Shown here: one piece after another, positions 8,229-39,964 of the stretch | How positions within the stretch are numbered: position 1 is the stretch's first letter | Layout of the letters: every line of letters starts with the position of its first letter | Source of the DNA: Spirochaetia bacterium | GTDB taxonomy: Bacteria > Spirochaetota > Spirochaetia > SZUA-6 > Bin103 | Length of the DNA: 64,000 bases | Direction: 5' to 3' | Assembly (NCBI GenBank): GCA_965208575.1 | Contig: CBDBOV010000006.1 | Coordinates: 160,001 to 224,000, forward strand | Program-made: the position numbers and the translations under genes | The notes under the pieces: generated by a model | The model's input: the letters and a program-made list of their open reading frames with translations, nothing else | The model's database searches: none | What the model was told of the DNA's origin: nothing

Positions 8229-9801
8229 ATGCGTTCGTTCAATACTGCCGGTCCCGTCAAGCCCGACAAGCACTATTGCATCCCGCCGCTTGAGCGGATC
8301 GACCTTGACGAAGTCCTTGGGCTGGTGCGAGACGAGCGGTACTTCGTGCTGCACGCGCCGCGGCAGACCGGCAAGACGTCGGCGTTGCTGGCGCTGGCCG
8401 ACGTGCTGAACGAGCGCGGCTACCGGTGCGTGTACGCCACGGTGGAGACCGCCCGCACCGCACGTGATGACGTGGAGCGAGCGATGCGCGTGGTGCTCGC
8501 CACCCTGGCGGAGGCGGCGCAGGGGGTAGACGACGCGTTTCTGGAGGACAAGTGGGCGGAGATTCTCGCCATGTTCGGGCCGGATCGGCGTTGGGCGCGG
8601 CGCTGTCGCGGTGGGCGCAGGCGGCCCCGCAACCGCTGGTGCTGCTGATCGACGAGATCGACACGCTGACGGGCGATTCGCTCCTGTCGGTACTGCAGCA
8701 GATCCGTGCCGGCTACCCCCGCCGCCCGGCGCGCATGCCGCACAGCGTGGTCCTGTGCGGCATGCGCGACCCACGCGACTACCGCATGGGCGCTGCCGGC
8801 AGCCCGTTCAACATCGCCGCGAAGTCGCTACGACTGGGCGACCTCTCGCGCCAGGAGACGCTGGCGCTGCTGGCCCAGCACACCGAGCAGACCGGCAGGC
8901 GTTTACGCCCGAGGCGCTGGAGGCGGTGTGGACGCAGACCCGCGGCCAGCCCTGGCTGGTGAACGCGCTGGCGTACGGTGTCTGTTTCGAGAACAAGACG
9001 CTGCGCGAAGACCGCTCCCGCACGGTGACCGCGGACGACATCGCCGCGGTGCGCGAGGAGCTGATCGCGAACCGGGTGACGCACCTCGACTATCTGGCCG
9101 ACAAGCTGCGCGAGGACCGCGTGCGGCGGGTGATCGAGCCGATGCTGAGCGGCACGCACCGGCACACCTTCACGGACCGCGATGTCGGGTACGCGCGCGA
9201 CCTCGGGCTGCTGGCCCGCGACGCGCCGCTGCGGGTGGCCAACCCGATCTACGCCGAAGTGCTGCCGCGCGAACTCGCGTGGGTGGCGCAGGAGACGCTG
9301 GAGCTGTCGCCGCCGCGGTACGTGAGGGCGGACGGCAGCCTGGACGCGGAGTTGCTGATGACGGAGTTCCAGGGCTTCTTCCGCCGCCACTGCGAGCATT
9401 GGCGCAACCGCTTCGCGTACGAGGAGGCGTGGCCGCAGTTGCTGCTGCAGGCGTACCTGCAGCGCGTGGTGAACGGCGGCGGCCGCATCGAGCGGGAGTA
9501 CGCGCTCGGGAGTGGCAGGGTGGACCTGCTGATCGTGTGGCCGCTGGCCGACCGGGTGCAGGAGTTCGTGGTGGAGTGCAAGGTGGTGCGCGAGCACGAC
9601 GGGCTGGACACCGTGGTGGACGAGGGCGTGGAGCAGACGGCTCGCTACGTGGACCGCTGCGCGGCGGAGGCCGGGCACCTGATCGTGATCGACAAGCGGG
9701 AGAACCGGAGCTGGGAGGAGAAGATCTACCGCACCCGGCGCCGCTCGGCGCATCTGCGGCGCGGCGGCGGCGCCGTGCCGGTAGCGGTGTGGGGGATGTG
9801 A
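8229..9801 (+). pseudogene. AAA ATPase with C-terminal PD-(D/E)XK-like domain; two frameshifts (~8590, ~8897), possibly sequencing error
   Basis: MRSFNTAGP; Walker A HAPRQTGKTS; Walker B VLLIDEID; REYALGSGRVDL..VECK across three frames. Confidence 0.8.
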
Positions 9802-31348: not shown

Positions 31349-33175
31349 TCAGGGTGCGGGCACGATCACTTCGTCGCCGGCATTGAGGCCGCTCAGGATC
31401 TCCACCTCGTACAACGTCGTCTCGCCGACCTCTACCGGCACTTCCCGAGGTGCGCCGCCGTCCTTGCTCCGCACCCGGACCCGATAATTTCCCGAGCTGC
31501 CCTGCACGGCGGCCACCGGCACCAGCAGGACGGCGGGCTGATCCCGTACCACGACCGTGACAGTGGCCGACATGCCCAGCCGCAGCCGCGCAAGATGCTC
31601 GTCGCTGATGCGGTCGATGGCCGCGGTAATGTCGAACGTGGGCACGCCGCCGCCGCCCCCGGTCTGGGACTGCGATGAGATCCGCACGATCCTGCCCTCG
31701 AAAACGAGATCCGAAAACGCGTCGCCGCTGATCCTGACCGGCTGCCCCGCGTGCACCTTGACGACGTCCACTTCGTCGACACTGCCGGTGACGGAAAGAC
31801 CGCGCAGATCACCGATGCTCAGCAGGTAGCCGCCTTCACTCATGAACCGCCCCGCGGCAAGCGGCCCATCGGCTTCGTCCCCGGAGCGCTGGCCGTCTCC
31901 GAGGTGGAGGACGACTCCAGAGACCGGCGCGACGATCGTCGCGTTCTGCAACGCACTCTCCAGCTCCCGCATGGTGGTAGTCGCGGTCTCCAGCCGGAGC
32001 CGGGCGATCTGCACCAGGTTCGCGCCGGCCTTGGCGAGCTCCTGGTCCAGTTCCAGCAGTGCCGTATCGTGTTGCATGCGCTGGATCTCGTACTGCTGAA
32101 CGGCCGCATCGTGCTCGGATGCCGGGATGATCCCCTGCTCCAGCAGCAGGGTGGATGCGGTGAGTCTGCTCATGCGCGCCTCCAGCTCCATCCCGGCCAG
32201 CACGACGCCCTGCCGGGCGCGCCTCACCTGCGGGCCGGTCTCCCAGTTCTCGAGCTCGCGGAGCTTGGCGCGGGCCTCCAGGAATCCGGCCGAGGCCTCC
32301 AGGTAGCGGCGATTGATCTCGGCGGTGTCCAACTGCACCAGCGGCTGGCCTTGCGCGACCCGGTCGCCATACTCGAAGAACACGCCCGCCACCTTGCCCG
32401 CGATCGGGCTGGTCACCGGCAGTTCCTCGCGCGGCGCGAGTCTCCCGACGTAAGCGAGCGTGCTGACCAGCCGGCGCGGCGCAACGGTCACCGTGAGCAC
32501 CTCCTCGGGCGCGCCGGACGGCGCCGAAGCTGCTGCCGGGAACGCCGCTCCAATCTCGTGCCAGACGTACCACGCGGCGCCCAGGAACAGCACGACGACG
32601 AGCAGCATCGCCAGCACGCGCACCGCCTGCACTTTCCTCAGGGCCGAGCCCAGCGCTCTGTTCTTCTCCTCGATCTCGCGATAGGCGTCCCGGAGTTCGG
32701 CGTTCTGCGCCTGGGTCGACTCCGCCAGCTCCCGTTCGGCCTGGCGCAATGCCTCCACTTCGGTGACGTCATCCAGCACGGCGACGATGCCGAGTCTTTC
32801 AATCTCCCCGTCCGTGTGACCGACGAGGTACGACGTCGTTACGTCGACGGACCGCTCGGTGTCGTCCCTGAGCCGCAGGCTGACCGTCGTCCGGGAGCCG
32901 ACCTTCTTGTCGTAGACGGACGCCAGAATCGTGTCGTTGAATTCTTCCAGACCGTCGTGGATCAGGAACGTCTCGCCGAACGGCTTGCCCCGGACCTCGT
33001 CGCCGTCCAGCCCCAGAAACCGCGAAGCGGCCGGGTTCAGGATGCCGATGCGGCCGTCGGCGGTGACGGTCATGACCCCTTCGGTCATGCTCTCCAGTAC
33101 ATTGCGGTGAAGCACATAGTCGCCGCCCACCACCGCATCGTTCTGTACCGAAGGACTCGTGGCGCCGTGCGTCAT
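31349..33175 (-). CDS. PAS-domain-fused membrane fusion (periplasmic adaptor) protein
   Basis: N-term PAS (VLESMTEGVMTV..LNPAASRFLG), coiled coil, TM, then VTSPIAGKV..GDRVAQGQPL, IVAPVSGVV, VDEVDVVKV, SGLNAGDEV. Confidence 0.88.
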   Translation of the reverse strand: MTHGATSPSVQNDAVVGGDYVLHRNVLESMTEGVMTVTADGRIGILNPAASRFLGLDGDEVRGKPFGETFLIHDGLEEFNDTILASVYDKKVGSRTTVSLRLRDDTERSVDVTTSYLVGHTDGEIERLGIVAVLDDVTEVEALRQAERELAESTQAQNAELRDAYREIEEKNRALGSALRKVQAVRVLAMLLVVVLFLGAAWYVWHEIGAAFPAAASAPSGAPEEVLTVTVAPRRLVSTLAYVGRLAPREELPVTSPIAGKVAGVFFEYGDRVAQGQPLVQLDTAEINRRYLEASAGFLEARAKLRELENWETGPQVRRARQGVVLAGMELEARMSRLTASTLLLEQGIIPASEHDAAVQQYEIQRMQHDTALLELDQELAKAGANLVQIARLRLETATTTMRELESALQNATIVAPVSGVVLHLGDGQRSGDEADGPLAAGRFMSEGGYLLSIGDLRGLSVTGSVDEVDVVKVHAGQPVRISGDAFSDLVFEGRIVRISSQSQTGGGGGVPTFDITAAIDRISDEHLARLRLGMSATVTVVVRDQPAVLLVPVAAVQGSSGNYRVRVRSKDGGAPREVPVEVGETTLYEVEILSGLNAGDEVIVPAP

Positions 33176-34626
33176 TCTTCCGCCTCGCCGCGAGCCGCCA
33201 GGTCGATGTCGATGTGCCAGGTTTCCAGCGTGGTCCCGAGCTTCAGGTCGAGCGCCGTCACAGCGTTCAAATACGTAATGATCGCATCGATTTCGCCGGT
33301 CTGGCTGCGCACCAGGTCGTCTTCGGACGCGACCACGTGGAAGTTGCTGGACAGGCCGGAATCCAGTTTCAACCGTTCGATCTCCAACTTCCGTTCGGCG
33401 AGCCTCCGCGACTGCCGCGCCAACTCGATGCGGCGGAACTGAAGCTCGACGTCGCGCACGGCGCGGAGCACCTCGAACTCGATCGCCTGGCGCAACTCCT
33501 GGAGCTGCAGGCGGGATCTCTGCGCTGAGATCCCGGCCCTTTGCCAGTTCCTCCGTTGGACGGCACTGTTGGTGCCCAGCGGGATCCGCATACCGAGTCC
33601 GGCCCGGAAATCGCCGTCGAACCGGCTGTACGCCTCTGCCAGCGAACGGCCACTGTGCCCGAAGCGCGCGGAGGCGGTGAGGTCAATCTCCCACTGGCGC
33701 GCGTTGTCGGCTTCCACCAAGGCGGTGTTCGCGTCTTCGATGGCCAGCACGGCCCGGAGATAGTCAGGACGGTTTTGCAGCGCCAGTTCCACGGCACGAT
33801 CGGCGTCGTACCGATTCGGGTCGAGCCGCAACGTCTCCGTGGGCCGGATCCGGGTCCGGCTGTCGATGTCCAGGATCGCAATCAGGGCAAGCCCGGCGTC
33901 ATCCAGCGCTGCGCGGGCTTCGGTCAGGTCCAACTCCCGCTCCGCAATGCTCGCTTCGGTGTGTACGATTTCCACTTCGGCCATCCTGCCGGCCTCGATC
34001 TGGACCCGGTTCGCCGCCCGCAGGTCGCGGGCGCTCTGCAGAGAACGTTTCGCGATCTCCACCGCGCGCATCGACCGCATCAGCGTCCGGTACGCGTAGA
34101 TGGTGCGGGTGACGAGTTCCATGACGGCCGACTTGAAGGCGAGGACGCCGATCTGGTCCGCGCGCCGGGCCCTCCCCACACCGGCGGTGCCGACCGCAAG
34201 GCCGGCCCCTTTCAGCAACGGCTGCACGAATTCGAGCTCCACGAATTGAGACGCGCTGTCCTGATCGGTGACCGTACTGTTGGCACTGAGGCGGAACATC
34301 CCGCCGGTGGGAACACGCAACGTCACGTTGGGAGACACGCCGAGCCTGGTGGTGGTCAAGTCGCGGTCCGCGGAGACGGCGAACGCGGCAGCGAGGCCAA
34401 ACTCGTCCTCGGCGTCCGCCAAGGATAGCCGCCCCGCGAGCCGGTCCAGCCGGCCGGCGGCCAGGTCACGACTACTCCGTATGGCCAGCATGATGCATTC
34501 GGCAAGCGTCAATTCGCGTTCGAGCGGAGCGCTCGAAGCGGGTTCCGCTATGGCCAGACCACCCGCCAATGCCGCCAGCACGGCCAGAAAGCAGGCGCGC
34601 CGTCCTGCACCCGAGGGGCCGGTTAC
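33172..34626 (-). CDS. TolC family outer-membrane protein (start uncertain)
   Basis: Signal-like LAVLAALAGGLAIA; LTLAECI..A; QPLLKGAG; ALQNRPD; KLDSGLSS; overlaps MFP start. Confidence 0.85.
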   Translation of the reverse strand, partial: VTGPSGAGRRACFLAVLAALAGGLAIAEPASSAPLERELTLAECIMLAIRSSRDLAAGRLDRLAGRLSLADAEDEFGLAAAFAVSADRDLTTTRLGVSPNVTLRVPTGGMFRLSANSTVTDQDSASQFVELEFVQPLLKGAGLAVGTAGVGRARRADQIGVLAFKSAVMELVTRTIYAYRTLMRSMRAVEIAKRSLQSARDLRAANRVQIEAGRMAEVEIVHTEASIAERELDLTEARAALDDAGLALIAILDIDSRTRIRPTETLRLDPNRYDADRAVELALQNRPDYLRAVLAIEDANTALVEADNARQWEIDLTASARFGHSGRSLAEAYSRFDGDFRAGLGMRIPLGTNSAVQRRNWQRAGISAQRSRLQLQELRQAIEFEVLRAVRDVELQFRRIELARQSRRLAERKLEIERLKLDSGLSSNFHVVASEDDLVRSQTGEIDAIITYLNAVTALDLKLGTTLETWHIDIDLAARGEAEE

Positions 34627-35961: not shown

Positions 35962-36468
35962 CTACTGCGACTGCGACTCGCGCGCGTGCCTTGCCAGGCG
36001 CTGCAGATAGGTGGAATACGCCGCCAGCTCGTCACGTACCGGGACGCGGCACGCGAGGTACTTGGAACGCACGAGCTCCAGCCGATCCCAGTCGTAGTCG
36101 AATGAGAAGTAGTAGCGCTTGAAGTGACGGAACCGGCGCAACTCCGAGAGTGCCGCGAAGGTTGTGTCGGAAATCACCCGCTCGCGGACTTCCGGAACGG
36201 TCCAGGTCATCGCCCGCAGCAGTTGCTCGTGCCAGCGGGCATCATCGAGCGCGTTCTCAAAGAACTGGCTGATGCGCTGAAACGCGGTCTCCAGGCAGGT
36301 GTAGAACGACACCAGCACGTCGCTGATGATGATCGCGTTCTCTACGGTGCGGGCGGCGCCATCCGGCTGCCGGTGGAACCGATCGTAGAACCCGTTGATG
36401 CGGTCGAGCACGGGCAGTGCGGCATCGAGTTCGGCGGCCAGTGCCGCAATGCGGTCAGCGGGCGCCAT
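35962..36468 (-). CDS. HEPN (HepT-like) ribonuclease toxin
   Basis: FYTCLE..F.RI; WHEQLL..M; ELRRFRH..Y. Confidence 0.85.
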   Translation of the reverse strand: MAPADRIAALAAELDAALPVLDRINGFYDRFHRQPDGAARTVENAIIISDVLVSFYTCLETAFQRISQFFENALDDARWHEQLLRAMTWTVPEVRERVISDTTFAALSELRRFRHFKRYYFSFDYDWDRLELVRSKYLACRVPVRDELAAYSTYLQRLARHARESQSQ

Positions 36469-36829
36469 GCACCAACCGGCCCGTGTCGCAGATCAGGCGC
36501 GCGTACTCCGTCTCGATGCGTTCCAGCTCCACGACGTGGAGCGGAAACGCGGTCAGCACCTCGGCGCGCGCGTAGAGTTCGAACAACCGCTCGGCGCGGC
36601 CCAGGCCCTCCACGGCGATGTCGATATCGGAGCGTGCGGAGAAGCGGCGCCGGTCCAGCAGCGAGCCCCATTGCCAGACGCGCAGGGGAGCGAACTCGCG
36701 CACGATCATCTTCACGATCCGGTCGAAGTCCGCCCACGCGGCGTCGAAGCGCTCGTCCAACTCACGCTGCCGGCATGCCTCGCGCCGCTGCAGGAAGGCG
36801 ACCGTGTCCGCCGGATCGACTCTCATCAC
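36455..36829 (-). CDS. Minimal nucleotidyltransferase (MntA-like) antitoxin
   Basis: WQWGSLL..SDIDIAVEG; overlaps HEPN gene. Confidence 0.88.
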   Translation of the reverse strand: MMRVDPADTVAFLQRREACRQRELDERFDAAWADFDRIVKMIVREFAPLRVWQWGSLLDRRRFSARSDIDIAVEGLGRAERLFELYARAEVLTAFPLHVVELERIETEYARLICDTGRLVHGAR

Positions 36830-36905
36830 CCCGAATCTCCGGTGACCAGTATACCGATCCGCCGCGGCCCGTGCCGGTGAGGCGCCGAGCGCTTATACTG
36901 TGGCG

Positions 36906-37520
36906 ATGCGACGCTTCATCGGTTGCTGCGTGCTCGCCGCCGCGGCGGCTGCCGTGTGCCTGGCGGAGGGCGAGGCGGAGGCCGGGGTCGAGCTGGTCAG
37001 CTACGAGTTGAAGGGTACCGGGCACGTCCTGGACCATCCCGCCGGCTGGACGGCGACCCGCGAGACGACGTACCACGAACGGCGGCTGATCAACGTGCTG
37101 ACGGTAATCACCGAGCTGCCGGAGGACCAGGACCTGGAGCGGACGCCGCGCGGCTACCGCCTGGTGGTCGACCACCTGCAGGTGGGCCGCTTCGCCCACG
37201 CGATCCGCCCCGATCAGCAATACCAGTCGCTGTTGGAGTTCTACACGTTGTTCTACGGCTGGCCGGAGCCGGAAGAGGCGGAGCTGACCGAGCTGTTCGG
37301 AAGGCATGCCGTGCGGATGAAGGCGCGCAACGAGGATGGCAGTTGGGAGTACGCGGTGGTCGGCGTCGGCGTGTTCCGGGAGCTGCACCGCATCGGCTAC
37401 GCCGTCGTGCTCACCTCGCCGGCGCACAAACCGCCCGCGGAGCGCGACCGGCTCTGGGCCGCGATCGTCGCCAGCGTGCGCCGCGCCGAAGCGGTCGCCG
37501 CGAGCGCGCCCGCGTCATGA
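36906..37520 (+). CDS. Hypothetical exported protein
   Basis: Signal-peptide-like N-terminus, high-GC3 codon usage, TATACT 6 nt upstream of ATG. Confidence 0.7.
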   Translation: MRRFIGCCVLAAAAAAVCLAEGEAEAGVELVSYELKGTGHVLDHPAGWTATRETTYHERRLINVLTVITELPEDQDLERTPRGYRLVVDHLQVGRFAHAIRPDQQYQSLLEFYTLFYGWPEPEEAELTELFGRHAVRMKARNEDGSWEYAVVGVGVFRELHRIGYAVVLTSPAHKPPAERDRLWAAIVASVRRAEAVAASAPAS

Positions 37521-37642
37521 GCAAGCGCCGGCCGTGCCGCACGCCGACCGACCGTGAGCGGCCCGGCGCCCGGTCTGGTAGCGAGCCCGGCCGTCGGTTG
37601 CCGTAGCCGGCGCTGCGAAGCGTGTCCTCCCGGATCTACCGG

Positions 37643-38443
37643 TCAACTCCAGGTACGGGTGCCCCAGCGCACCTGGCCGAGGATCTCGGCGCCCTCCGGC
37701 CACGGCCGCGGCTCGCCGGACCGGCCATCGCCGACCAGGAGCCAGCGTCCGTCCGCGTCCTTGCCGGCGCGCGCGACCACCAGGCGGCCGCCGCCGTACA
37801 CCAGGAAGATGGCCCCCGGACGGCGGCGGCGTTGCGCGCGGTTGATCAGGATCGTGGAGCCGTCGCAGAGAGTCGGCGCCATCGACTCGCCGTGCACGTG
37901 CACCACGGCGCACCGGGCAGCGTCGAGCCGGTGGCGGTCGAGCCATCCCTGCCGGAACGCCATGCAGCCGGCGCGGGTGGAGTCGTCGAGGCGGGCGCCG
38001 CGCGCCGGCGCGGGCGGCACCTCGTAGCAGTCGACGAAGCGCACCCCCGGTACCTCACGCGGCTCCTTCCACCAGGCCAGATCGGCGGCGAGGCCGTCGT
38101 CGGGAATCCTCGGTTGCGCATCGGAAGGCGGCGGCCACCGCCCGGTCCCGGCGAAACGGCGAAGGTCGTTGCGCAGCTCCTGCCGCAGTTCCGCCACCCA
38201 CGCGGGCGCCGGCTCGCGCTCCCGGATTTCCGCATGGTAGCCGCCGGCGCCGGTGCGCGGCGGACCGACGTAGAACTCCAGCCCAAGCTCTTCGCACACT
38301 CGCTGCAGGGTGGAGGCGCGTACGTCCATCCCTCGCTTGATGCTGCGAATAGCGCTCTCGTGGCCGACCGCGGACATCGATACCTCCCGTCCGGAGCGAC
38401 CGCTACGGCTCAGCGCGGCCAGTATGACGTCCATGTAGGTCAT
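37643..38443 (-). CDS. Phage CI-like repressor (HTH + degenerate S24 peptidase domain)
   Basis: N-term HTH (SAIRSIKRG..ASTLQRVCEELGLEFYVGPPR); VHGESMAPTLCDG; VVARAG in place of VVKR; ILGQVRW. Confidence 0.85.
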   Translation of the reverse strand: MTYMDVILAALSRSGRSGREVSMSAVGHESAIRSIKRGMDVRASTLQRVCEELGLEFYVGPPRTGAGGYHAEIREREPAPAWVAELRQELRNDLRRFAGTGRWPPPSDAQPRIPDDGLAADLAWWKEPREVPGVRFVDCYEVPPAPARGARLDDSTRAGCMAFRQGWLDRHRLDAARCAVVHVHGESMAPTLCDGSTILINRAQRRRRPGAIFLVYGGGRLVVARAGKDADGRWLLVGDGRSGEPRPWPEGAEILGQVRWGTRTWS

Positions 38444-38509
38444 ACGTGCCCTGAACTGTAACGCATCCACCGCCTTGACCGGCGAGGTTTTTGTGCCATA
38501 ACATACGGC
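38444..38509. promoter_or_regulatory. Divergent promoter/operator region of cI/cro-like switch
   Basis: 66-bp gap; TTGACC (38475-38480)-18 nt-TAACAT (38499-38504), 5 nt before ATG 38510; TACAGT on the minus strand before cI. Confidence 0.6.
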
Positions 38510-39787
38510 ATGAATGCCCTGAACCGGTCGCTCGTGGAACTCGCCGCCCGGTATGCGCACTGGCGGCGGGTGAGCCTGTGGCGAGTCGGACACCTCGCGG
38601 CCAGTCGCGGGTCGTTCTTCGTGGACCTCCGGGATGGGCGGCGGCACTGCCAGACGAACACCTACACCCGCGTGCTGCAGTGGTTCGCCGACCACTGGCC
38701 GGAGGACCTGGAGTGGCCGCCGGATACGCCGCGACCGGGGCGCGCGGCGAGGGCGCCGGCAGGGCCGGCGGACTCGGGGCTGGCGGCCGACCGGGAGGCG
38801 CTGCTGTCGTTCAAGAACGGACTGGTCGACGGCGCCGCGCTGAATTGGTCGCAGGAGCGCGGCCTGCGCGGGTGGGTCGGGGTGACCCTCGGCGGCACGC
38901 CGCCGCGCGTGACCCGGCTCGATGTCAGCGCCCGCGGCCTGCGCGGCCCCATCGCCCCCGAACTCGGCAACCTTGCCCGCCTGACCCGGCTGTGGCTCGC
39001 CGACAACCGCTTGTCCGGGCCGATTCCGGGCGCCCTCGGCCGACTCGCCGACCTCACCTCGCTGGCGCTCTGGGGCAACGAGCTGTCGGGCCCCATTCCG
39101 CCCGAACTCGGCGCGCTGACAAGCCTGACGACGCTATCCCTGGCCAGGAACCGGCTGTGCGGCGCCATTCCCCGCGAGTTGTGCGGGCTGGCGGATCTGC
39201 GATTCCTGTTCCTGTGGGGGAACCGCCTGACGGGCGCGATCCCGGCGCAACTGGGGGAGCTTTCCCGCCTCACCGAGTTGGCGCTGTCGGAGAACCGGCT
39301 GACCGGGCCGATCCCTTGCCAACTGGGCAAACTGGCACCGCTGACCAGGCTCCTGCTGTCCGACAATGGGTTGAGCGGTCCTATCCCCGCCGAGCTCGCC
39401 GGGCTGCGCAACCTCAAGGTCCTCGACCTCGCGGGCAACCGATTGAGCGGACCGATTCCGCCGCAAATCGGCGATCTGACCGGTCTCGCCTCGCTGCAGG
39501 TGGACGGCAACCGGCTGACCGGTCCGATTCCGCTGGAGCTCGGCGAGCTCGCCAACCTGCGCAGGCTGGACCTGGGCGGCAACCGGTTGAACGGACCCGT
39601 TCCATACCAACTCGGCCGGCTGCGGAGACTGGTGTCGCTGGACCTGGGCGACAACCACTTCGACGGGCCGTTCCCGAGCGGACTTGAGGCTTTGACCGAG
39701 CTGCGGGTACTGCGGACTTCCGGCAACCCGTCGATCTCCGCGTCCATCCCGGAGGCCCTGAAGAACAGTCTGCTTGCCATCGTGTGA
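38510..39787 (+). CDS. Cro-like DNA-binding domain fused to LRR N-cap plus 12 plant-type 24-aa LRRs
   Basis: N-term ..GSFFVDLRDGR..YTRVLQWFADHWPEDLEWPPDTPRP; cap DREALLSFK..NWS..W.GV; repeats LxxLxLxxNxLSGPIPxELGxL; no signal peptide. Confidence 0.85.
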   Translation: MNALNRSLVELAARYAHWRRVSLWRVGHLAASRGSFFVDLRDGRRHCQTNTYTRVLQWFADHWPEDLEWPPDTPRPGRAARAPAGPADSGLAADREALLSFKNGLVDGAALNWSQERGLRGWVGVTLGGTPPRVTRLDVSARGLRGPIAPELGNLARLTRLWLADNRLSGPIPGALGRLADLTSLALWGNELSGPIPPELGALTSLTTLSLARNRLCGAIPRELCGLADLRFLFLWGNRLTGAIPAQLGELSRLTELALSENRLTGPIPCQLGKLAPLTRLLLSDNGLSGPIPAELAGLRNLKVLDLAGNRLSGPIPPQIGDLTGLASLQVDGNRLTGPIPLELGELANLRRLDLGGNRLNGPVPYQLGRLRRLVSLDLGDNHFDGPFPSGLEALTELRVLRTSGNPSISASIPEALKNSLLAIV

Positions 39788-39964
39788 GTAGCGGCGATCC
39801 CGCGGCGGCGGTCAGATCGGCGATCCTCCGCAGGTCGCGGAGTCCACCGGCGGCCCGGCAGCCGCTTGACGGCGTCGTTCAGACGAGTGCGTCCGGTCAG
39901 GCGATTGCGTTCCAGGCAAAGCCGGCATGGGGTCGCATCGCTCTCCGGTTTCCCGTTCGCGACG

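Follow-up and report, generated by a model that had tools for sequence, protein, structure and literature searches.

The window analysed here is a stretch of 64,000 nucleotides from a Spirochaetia bacterium (assembly GCA_965208575.1, contig CBDBOV010000006.1, positions 160,001 to 224,000 of the forward strand), and all coordinates refer to positions within it unless another contig or locus is named. At 37643-39787 it contains a divergent gene pair, formed by a repressor gene with a helix-turn-helix (HTH) domain and a partner gene on the opposite strand. The repressor gene (P0001) lies at 37643..38443 on the minus strand, stop codon included, has its ATG start at 38443 and encodes 266 amino acids (aa). 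The partner gene (P0002) lies at 38510-39787 on the plus strand, encodes 425 aa and starts 66 bp from the repressor gene, so that a divergent control region of 66 bp (38444..38509) separates the two. The pair is probably an orphan, domesticated immunity switch of the phage CI/Cro type, whose repressor carries a non-catalytic S24-fold oligomerisation domain.

The repressor is composed of an N-terminal DNA-binding domain, a linker and a C-terminal domain. Its start codon is supported by an equivalent methionine in all 53 homologues of alignment A1 (MTY..., MP[Y] or MD), except in one row whose N-terminus was called longer. The database copy of the protein (P0003) has 244 aa, is 100% identical and covers 92% of the 266-aa query; it appears to have been called from an internal methionine, which cuts part of the HTH domain. 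This domain comprises residues 1-60 (38264..38443, minus strand), as supported by the structural model, the homologues and the ratios of nonsynonymous to synonymous substitution rates (dN/dS), and it is predicted to form four helices at residues 3-14, 18-26, 30-36 and 43-52, with a predicted local distance difference test (pLDDT) score of 92-98 throughout. It matches no Pfam family at E<=10 and is 60-73% identical to domains found in metagenome-assembled genomes (MAGs) labelled Binatia, Fidelibacterota and Rhodobacteraceae.

The C-terminal domain, residues 134-266 (37646..38044, minus strand), is an S24-like domain of the LexA/CI fold without the catalytic dyad, as indicated by Pfam, Foldseek and dN/dS. 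The span 37643-38030, to which the original prediction on this DNA referred, corresponds to residues ~139-266 and therefore to this domain. The Pfam model Peptidase_S24 (PF00717) matches residues 158-258 with 32.1 bits (cut-off 23.3). The AlphaFold model of the repressor, built on 119 sequences, has a pLDDT of 85.5 and gives 48 Foldseek matches in the PDB at E<=0.001, which include the C-terminal domains of lambda CI, LexA and UmuD'. The best match is 2hnf, a fragment of lambda CI with the cleavage-site region included (E 3.4e-7, 142 aligned columns), and others are LexA (3k2z and 6a2q), UmuD' (1ay9) and also 8gmt. The C-terminal domain of phage 186 CI (2fkd_A) is matched with an E-value of 6e-4 and a template modelling (TM) score of 0.74 on the target. 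A single-sequence phmmer search of the PDB with P0001 gave no match at E<=1.

Catalytic residues of the repressor—Autocleavage of LexA and CI requires a Ser-Lys dyad and an Ala-Gly bond. Ser187 (codon TCG, 37883..37885, minus strand) keeps the nucleophile position within GESMAP, so the GESM motif is intact, as the original prediction had stated. The general-base column, equivalent to Lys156 of LexA, is assigned by sequence and alignments to Ala224 (codon GCG, 37772..37774, minus strand) within LVVARAG. Four A1 members (P0055, P0059, P0062 and P0066), the most distant of those shown, have L[IV]VKR in the same columns, and the A1 profile, when compared with solved LexA C-terminal domains, sets 'LvvkRag' on 'VTVKRF' or 'ATVKTF', with weak E-values of 0.13-0.15. 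A placement of LVVARAG by eye one strand before the LexA catalytic strand is ruled out by the computed alignments. By A1, the LexA profile and the model match, Ala224 thus occupies the general-base column, and the predicted loss of the catalytic lysine is borne out.

The cleavage site is also degenerate. The region YEVPPAPARGAR, residues 140-151 (37991..38026, minus strand), contains PPAPARGA(R) where relatives have AAAGGGA, and Pro-Ala fills the columns that hold Ala-Gly in the relatives. The same four distant members have AAAGGGA[ML] (VAAGGGAL in P0066) in the columns that match PPAPARGAR, in agreement with the expected loss of the scissile bond. In terms of S24 membership, the repressor has the beta-fold and the serine of the G-x-S-M motif and lacks both the general-base lysine and an Ala-Gly (or Cys-Gly) bond. 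Since the general base and the bond are both gone, self-cleavage, and with it the direct coupling to RecA and the SOS response, has very probably been lost, as had been proposed from the same residues.

To place these losses in the family, an exhaustive HMMER search was made, which returned 2474 representative proteins at E<=0.001; the best 150 of them, together with the earlier homologues, were aligned to the A1 profile. The clade of the repressor counts 53 members, which are 54-100% identical, and leaves out P0003 (its own protein), P0053, which ends before the lysine column, and the frameshifted or truncated P0060, P0064 and P0065. The lysine column of the clade contains R in 26 members, A in 11, S in 5, G in 4, N in 3, T in 2, and Q and M in one each, and K in none. 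Such a spread over eight residue types would be expected after release of the constraint on the column. The comparison group consists of 130 relatives that carry K in this column by definition. The serine is kept in 49/53 clade members versus 128/130 lysine-bearing relatives, and an Ala-Gly pair is found anywhere in the 10-residue site window in 11/53 clade members, the repressor itself not among them, versus 122/130 relatives.

In a FastTree tree of 205 C-terminal domains the clade forms a single 52-row branch, which has no K in any row and a support of 100, and its nearest neighbours carry K. The state of the lysine column changes 11 times by parsimony, of which at least two changes are forced by well-supported branches. 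Another dead lineage is the GDAM/VRR group, which has the residue type of L012, a paralogue in the same genome that is described below, and a further one (P0068, P0069 and P0084) has a different DNA-binding domain, HTH_3 plus BetR. Loss of the S24 dyad is therefore recurrent in this repressor family, and annotation pipelines that call every PF00717 match 'SOS-inducible' would mis-predict inducibility.

Proteolytic control could in principle survive these losses by three routes. One is self-cleavage with a substitute base. Lys228 (codon AAG, 37760..37762, minus strand) lies 4 residues past the lost lysine, at the end of the predicted strand E220-228 that also held the lost lysine in the model, and the original prediction had named it as a possible occupant of the catalytic position. 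This column (+4) is K in 43 and R in 10 clade members, and among the 130 lysine-bearing relatives 65 already have K there and 38 have R; because it is K or R in 103/130 proteins that keep the catalytic lysine, Lys228 is an old, ancestral feature of the family and not a shifted base. Arg225 is another candidate, and arginine is found at the lysine column in 26 of the 53 clade members, but the base position of the repressor itself is Ala. The other two routes are cleavage in trans by an intact S24 paralogue and cleavage by a separate protease of the ImmA, Clp or Lon type. The genome has an intact paralogue (L011), which is fully canonical with A-G, GESM and VVKR, and two canonical LexA genes along with RecA, and Ser187 within GxSM is kept at the frequency given above. 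Against trans cleavage, the Ala-Gly bond is absent, which leaves it without its normal substrate, and no ImmA-like gene was seen among the scanned neighbours. We consider proteolytic control by any of these routes quite improbable.

The partner gene—The conserved part of the partner is its N-terminal domain of 76 residues (38510..38737, plus strand), which by homology and synteny belongs to phrog_7669 and is a cro-position protein. Two stand-alone homologues, P0231 and P0232, match phrog_7669, a family of 'unknown function', with E-values of 5e-23 and 3.9e-22, respectively. The domain matches no Pfam family at E<=10, except for a sub-threshold DUF982 match of P0232. It is encoded divergently from and adjacent to an HTH repressor gene in all nine genome-contig loci (9/9), which belong to MAGs labelled Spirochaetia, Binatia, Fidelibacterota and Rhodobacteraceae and share 55-91% identity, and stand-alone partners of 86-104 aa are the rule. 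In the phages vB_ThpS-P1 (Thiobacimonas) and AmM-1 (Aurantimonas), the partner homologue is the first open reading frame (ORF) divergent from the annotated CI or Cro-CI regulator. A tblastn search of the phage collection with P0231 matches 4 records at 30-37% identity, and the same search with the paralogous partner P0232 gave no match.

When viral contigs were scanned with the partner alignment, 79 loci were found, and a partner ORF was detected in 78 of them. A divergent HTH neighbour lies within 2.5 kb in 51/78 of these loci, and in the other 27/78 none was detectable with two profiles. The classing of the viral repressors, based on hidden Markov models, is rough: about 41/51 keep both Ser and Lys, 30 of them aligned directly and 11 of the 'EATIGILSKR' type assigned by eye after a 3-residue offset, 6/51 have an S24-like region without both residues (L041, L054, L055, L057, L092 and L099), and 4/51 have no S24-like region. 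The six repressors without Ser and Lys indicate that the dyad is also lost in apparently complete phage contexts.

The partner is of phage origin. Because it belongs to phrog_7669 and takes the cro position beside CI in real phages, the pair is read as an orphan phage immunity switch that now sits among chromosomal genes. Of the features of a CI/Cro-type system, the locus has the divergent pair over a short control region and the cro-position partner, and it lacks prophage surroundings. The pair of HTH and partner is found with three kinds of repressor C-terminus: an intact S24 domain (L006-L008), none (L004 and L005, ~140 aa) and the dead domain described here. The C-terminal module is therefore a variable and exchangeable part of a conserved two-gene switch.

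Two of these loci, both from Rhodobacteraceae (L006, 4878-6416, and L008, 239-1684), encode two tandem S24-like domains after the same HTH, with GQSM...IKR in the first domain and G[DY]SM...V/IKR in the second.

The fold of the partner domain is less clear, and this counts against the proposed switch. Its model is a four-helix bundle with a pLDDT of 79. Foldseek returns mostly Xre-type HTH proteins among the listed weak matches, none at E<=0.001, and the best VIA-align Z score is 6.3, which is under the caution level of the tool for helical proteins; the VIA-align matches include both HTH proteins and unrelated helical chains. An HTH fold is thus suggested by the model, although the assignment is weak, and the partner may play a Cro-like role at the switch.

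The genome also contains a second, paralogous switch, L012 (G000 C6:1084261-1085476, ORFs 999-1262 on the minus strand and 1363-2271 on the plus strand). The cleavage site of its repressor reads AAAGG, alanine replaces the serine (GDAM) and arginine replaces the lysine (MVRR); the 87-aa phrog_7669 partner P0232 is encoded divergently from it.

The control region—A sigma-70-like promoter, TTGACC-18-TAACAT, lies at 38475-38504 on the plus strand and faces the partner. It is the single sigma-70-like site found in a promoter scan of 37500-39900, for which 0.0 sites are expected in shuffles. The promoter ends 5 nt before the ATG of the partner, whose mRNA is therefore probably leaderless or near-leaderless. 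Two direct repeats of 21 nt, 76% identical and 68 bp apart, are located at 38436-38456 and 38504-38524, and each of them overlaps one of the two start codons. In alignment A5, which covers 10 loci of four phylum-level labels, the -35 element, a TGTGCC motif and GGCATG vary little or not at all, and both repeat copies fall within conserved blocks. By their position and conservation, the repeats are candidate operators.

Distribution and selection—The clade is present in 7/24 genomes of one family (G000, G010, G001, G008, G020, G018 and G002) and, at E<=1e-20, was found in 0/68 genomes from the order's seven other families. Pairwise NG86 dN/dS was calculated for the 21 pairs formed by the seven copies. 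The values are 0.05-0.22 for the repressor HTH, 0.15-0.80 for the linker (with dS not estimable in one pair), 0.20-0.52 for the S24-like domain and 0.07-0.27 for the partner N-terminal domain (21 pairs), and the ratio is <1 for every repressor domain and pair with a dS estimate. The repressor is thus held by purifying selection. The dead domain, with values below 1 and above those of the HTH, is kept, though less tightly than the HTH.

These data bear on an alternative, that the locus is a leftover of a lost prophage in neutral decay and that the losses of the lysine and of Ala-Gly are first steps of pseudogenisation without any new function. Several observations speak for it and weigh against the domesticated switch proposed here. 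The module is patchy, as the counts above indicate; evolution is 2-4 times faster in the S24-like domain than in the HTH, with dN/dS of up to 0.52 in the former; and the lysine column drifts freely. The database copies P0060 and P0064 look frameshifted, a relative of the partner (P0285, 239 aa) is truncated within its fused C-terminal domain, and in L026 an insertion sequence (IS) lies between repressor and partner, all of which fits partial decay. From another direction, the conservation of Ser187 within GxSM in 49/53 members exceeds what purely structural drift might give and could mean residual activity. Neutral decay is nevertheless unlikely, since all 7/7 genome copies are intact ORFs of 261-268 aa, dN/dS is <1 in 21/21 pairs for the HTH, the C-terminal domain and the partner, and Trp167, Gly195, Arg206/207, Trp234, Trp248, Gly256 and Trp260 are invariant in the 53 sequences of A1. 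Furthermore, the clade is deep (to 54% identity) and uniformly full length, and conservation of the promoter and repeats extends across phyla. The original prediction had described two losses in an otherwise intact gene, and the intact orthologous ORFs under purifying selection agree with it.

The insertion in L026 (7847-9750) consists of an IS-type transposase of 374 aa (8488-9612, minus strand), which splits the pair and puts 1.9 kb between the partner promoter and the repressor gene; both ORFs are intact.

The leucine-rich repeat fusion—The C-terminal part of the partner, residues 93-425 plus the stop codon (38786..39787, plus strand), is a plant-type leucine-rich repeat (LRR) domain fused in frame to the phrog_7669 domain, and this fusion is the only feature of the locus that is truly unusual. 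Pfam models match it as LRR_1 (E 2e-37, 8 stretches), LRR_8 (E 1.2e-26) and LRR_4 (E 4e-26), and LRRNT_2 gives 20.5 bits, slightly below its cut-off of 20.7. The fusion is shared with L001 and L002, whose repressors are 75% and 72% identical and which have the same flanking genes. A scan of metagenome contigs gave 4 loci, with one more LRR-fused locus (L113, near L002) and no new architecture, and a search for longer fused forms of the partner gave 2 proteins, which is weak evidence on rarity outside this lineage. The three fused copies have LRR dN/dS values of 0.31-0.34.

The other clade genomes (L003, L025, L026 and L027) have stand-alone partners of 91-100 aa. In L003 a 92-aa partner is followed by a beta-propeller-like lipoprotein and then by a separate LRR protein whose signal sequence is of the lipoprotein type. 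No LRR is encoded within 7 kb in L025, which has a 91-aa partner, or in L026 and L027, where an Ig-domain lipoprotein follows the partner. The LRR protein of L003 and the closest LRR paralogue of the own genome (C4; signal-peptide-like N-terminus) carry a signal, whereas the fused LRR has no signal peptide and is therefore probably cytoplasmic.

The original prediction had proposed that the switch needs an input other than RecA, plausibly its LRR partner, and had suggested a check of whether the loss of the lysine co-segregates with LRR-fused neighbours. It does not: the lysine is absent in 7/7 genomes and the fusion is present in 3, those of the repressor itself, L001 and L002. As all clade genomes lack the lysine and the LRR is fused only in the three closest, the lysine was lost before the fusion arose, and its loss is older than and independent of the fusion. 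The conserved partner is, moreover, the 76-residue phrog_7669 domain and not the LRR.

An LRR that, on sensing a ligand or protein, inactivates the repressor in place of RecA would be consistent with an in-frame fusion to a conserved partner domain at the repressor's own locus (here and in L001, L002 and L113), with the purifying selection on the LRR and with its probable cytoplasmic location, where a sensor must be. This explanation has only a slim chance of being correct, because the lysine is missing in all 53 clade members and seven genomes and the fusion is confined to three close ones (72-75% identical), the pair of HTH and partner also occurs with an intact S24 domain or with none, and the LRR is truncated in one relative (P0285). 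Another possibility gives the fusion a role of its own. The domesticated switch could have turned into a cytoplasmic sensor, in which the Cro-like DNA-binding domain and the LRR form a one-component transcription factor that binds a ligand or a (host) protein, the dead S24 domain serves as a docking or oligomerisation surface, and signals to the LRR, not DNA damage, flip the bistable switch. We regard this as rather speculative and give it little credence. If it were true, the resulting HTH-LRR transcription factor would represent a regulator architecture new to bacteria.

Proposed mechanism—In the domesticated CI/Cro-type switch that we favour, the HTH domain of the repressor would bind the 66-bp divergent control region, presumably at the repeats, and the bound repressor would silence the strong, near-leaderless promoter that drives the partner gene. 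Its C-terminal domain would be a pseudo-protease, with the LexA/lambda-CI beta-fold and without the general base and the Ala-Gly bond. By analogy with lambda CI, LexA and 186 CI, the dead domain would probably serve for dimerising or oligomerising the repressor alone. RecA* would probably not be able to turn this repressor off through self-cleavage, despite the presence of LexA and RecA in the host. De-repression would then depend on dilution or turnover of the repressor, on competition of the Cro-like partner at shared operators or on some antirepressor.

Comparison with known systems—Non-cleaving repressors of the S24 fold are already known, with 186 CI, N15 CB and the LexA of Synechocystis as examples. 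The CI of phage 186 is not known to have the catalytic residues, and the antirepressor Tum of the same phage is LexA-controlled. Tum acts by binding its repressor, and non-cleavable repressors are common (PMC3121763). The repressor described here resembles 186 CI as an HTH repressor with a LexA/CI-like C-terminal fold that is not inactivated by self-cleavage. It differs from it as an orphan, while 186 CI sits in a working prophage with Tum as input, and the two have no detectable sequence relationship beyond the fold. It shares the lack of self-cleavage residues with the group of 186 CI/Tum, N15 CB/AntC and Gifsy GfoR/GfoA; an antirepressor was not identified for this switch, and no search aimed at Tum-, AntC- or GfoA-like genes or at SOS boxes was made.

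'Non-cleavable' and 'non-proteolytic N15' repressors are described in another report, along with other temperate phages that combine a repressor without a peptidase domain with an antirepressor (PMC10432266). N15 CB, as portrayed there, is a CI-like master repressor without autoproteolytic activity, next to divergently transcribed genes, and these features are also seen here (PMC10432266). The N15-type systems belong to active enterobacterial phage-plasmids and are induced by antirepressors, whereas this module is chromosomal and orphan, in a high-GC lineage of MAGs whose relatives are labelled Spirochaetia. In Synechocystis sp. PCC 6803, LexA (sll1626) lacks the Ala-Gly site and the dyad serine and regulates non-SOS genes (PMC1524924). 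Both are chromosomal regulators of the LexA type that lost Ala-Gly and part of the dyad, but the cyanobacterial protein is a true LexA orthologue that lost Ser, and the repressor here is phage CI-like with a different HTH, lost Lys and keeps Ser.

Compared with the canonical MEROPS S24 members lambda CI, LexA and UmuD, the repressor has the same fold, including the cleavage-site region, the architecture of HTH, linker and C-terminal domain, and the divergent cro-position partner, and it differs in the absence of the general base and the scissile bond, so that the self-cleavage chemistry is unavailable. IrvR of Streptococcus mutans is a LexA-like repressor of irvA that acts outside the RecA paradigm, and degraded phage genomes are seen as reservoirs of such regulators (PMC7101444). 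The same source reports that IrvR cleaves itself at Ala-Gly through a Ser/Lys dyad and that K260A blocks this cleavage (PMC7101444). IrvR is likewise a domesticated LexA-like repressor thought to derive from a degraded phage; it still autocleaves, while the repressor here naturally carries the equivalent of the K260A change.

The loss of the lysine and of Ala-Gly by itself thus repeats what is known from 186 CI, N15 CB and the cyanobacterial LexA. The locus would add a clean natural case in which a LexA/CI-fold domain is selected for after its chemistry was lost, within a phage immunity module that is kept without the phage. It also places phrog_7669, a family without known function, at the cro position in many temperate phages, and the fusion of a Cro-like domain with an LRR is a testable candidate for a new sensor architecture.

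Genes around the module—The neighbours of the module encode a PAS-HlyD protein, a TolC-like outer-membrane efflux protein, a pyridoxal phosphate-dependent enzyme, a pair of HepT-like and nucleotidyltransferase proteins, a 206-aa protein, an enolase-superfamily enzyme and a Uma2 nuclease. The flanking genes have metabolic, toxin-antitoxin or transport functions, and prophage genes (integrase, replication or structural) are not among them. The repressor, the partner and three neighbours had no defence-system match in PADLOC. The order of genes around the module is conserved in L001 at 75% identity.

At 35962-36829 on the minus strand, a HepT-like protein (PF20797) and a small nucleotidyltransferase (Polbeta-like, below cut-off) are encoded as a pair that is kept beside the switch in L001; judging from these family matches, it is probably a HEPN/MNT toxin-antitoxin module. 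The 206-aa protein, at 36900-37520 on the plus strand, has a hydrophobic N-terminus and belongs to no Pfam or PADLOC family, and it is also kept beside the repressor in L001 (5896-6567). At 31349-34560 on the minus strand, a 608-aa membrane-fusion protein of the HlyD family carries a fused PAS domain as its N-terminus, and the TolC-like outer-membrane efflux protein comes after it; it is unusual for an efflux adaptor to have a sensory PAS domain.

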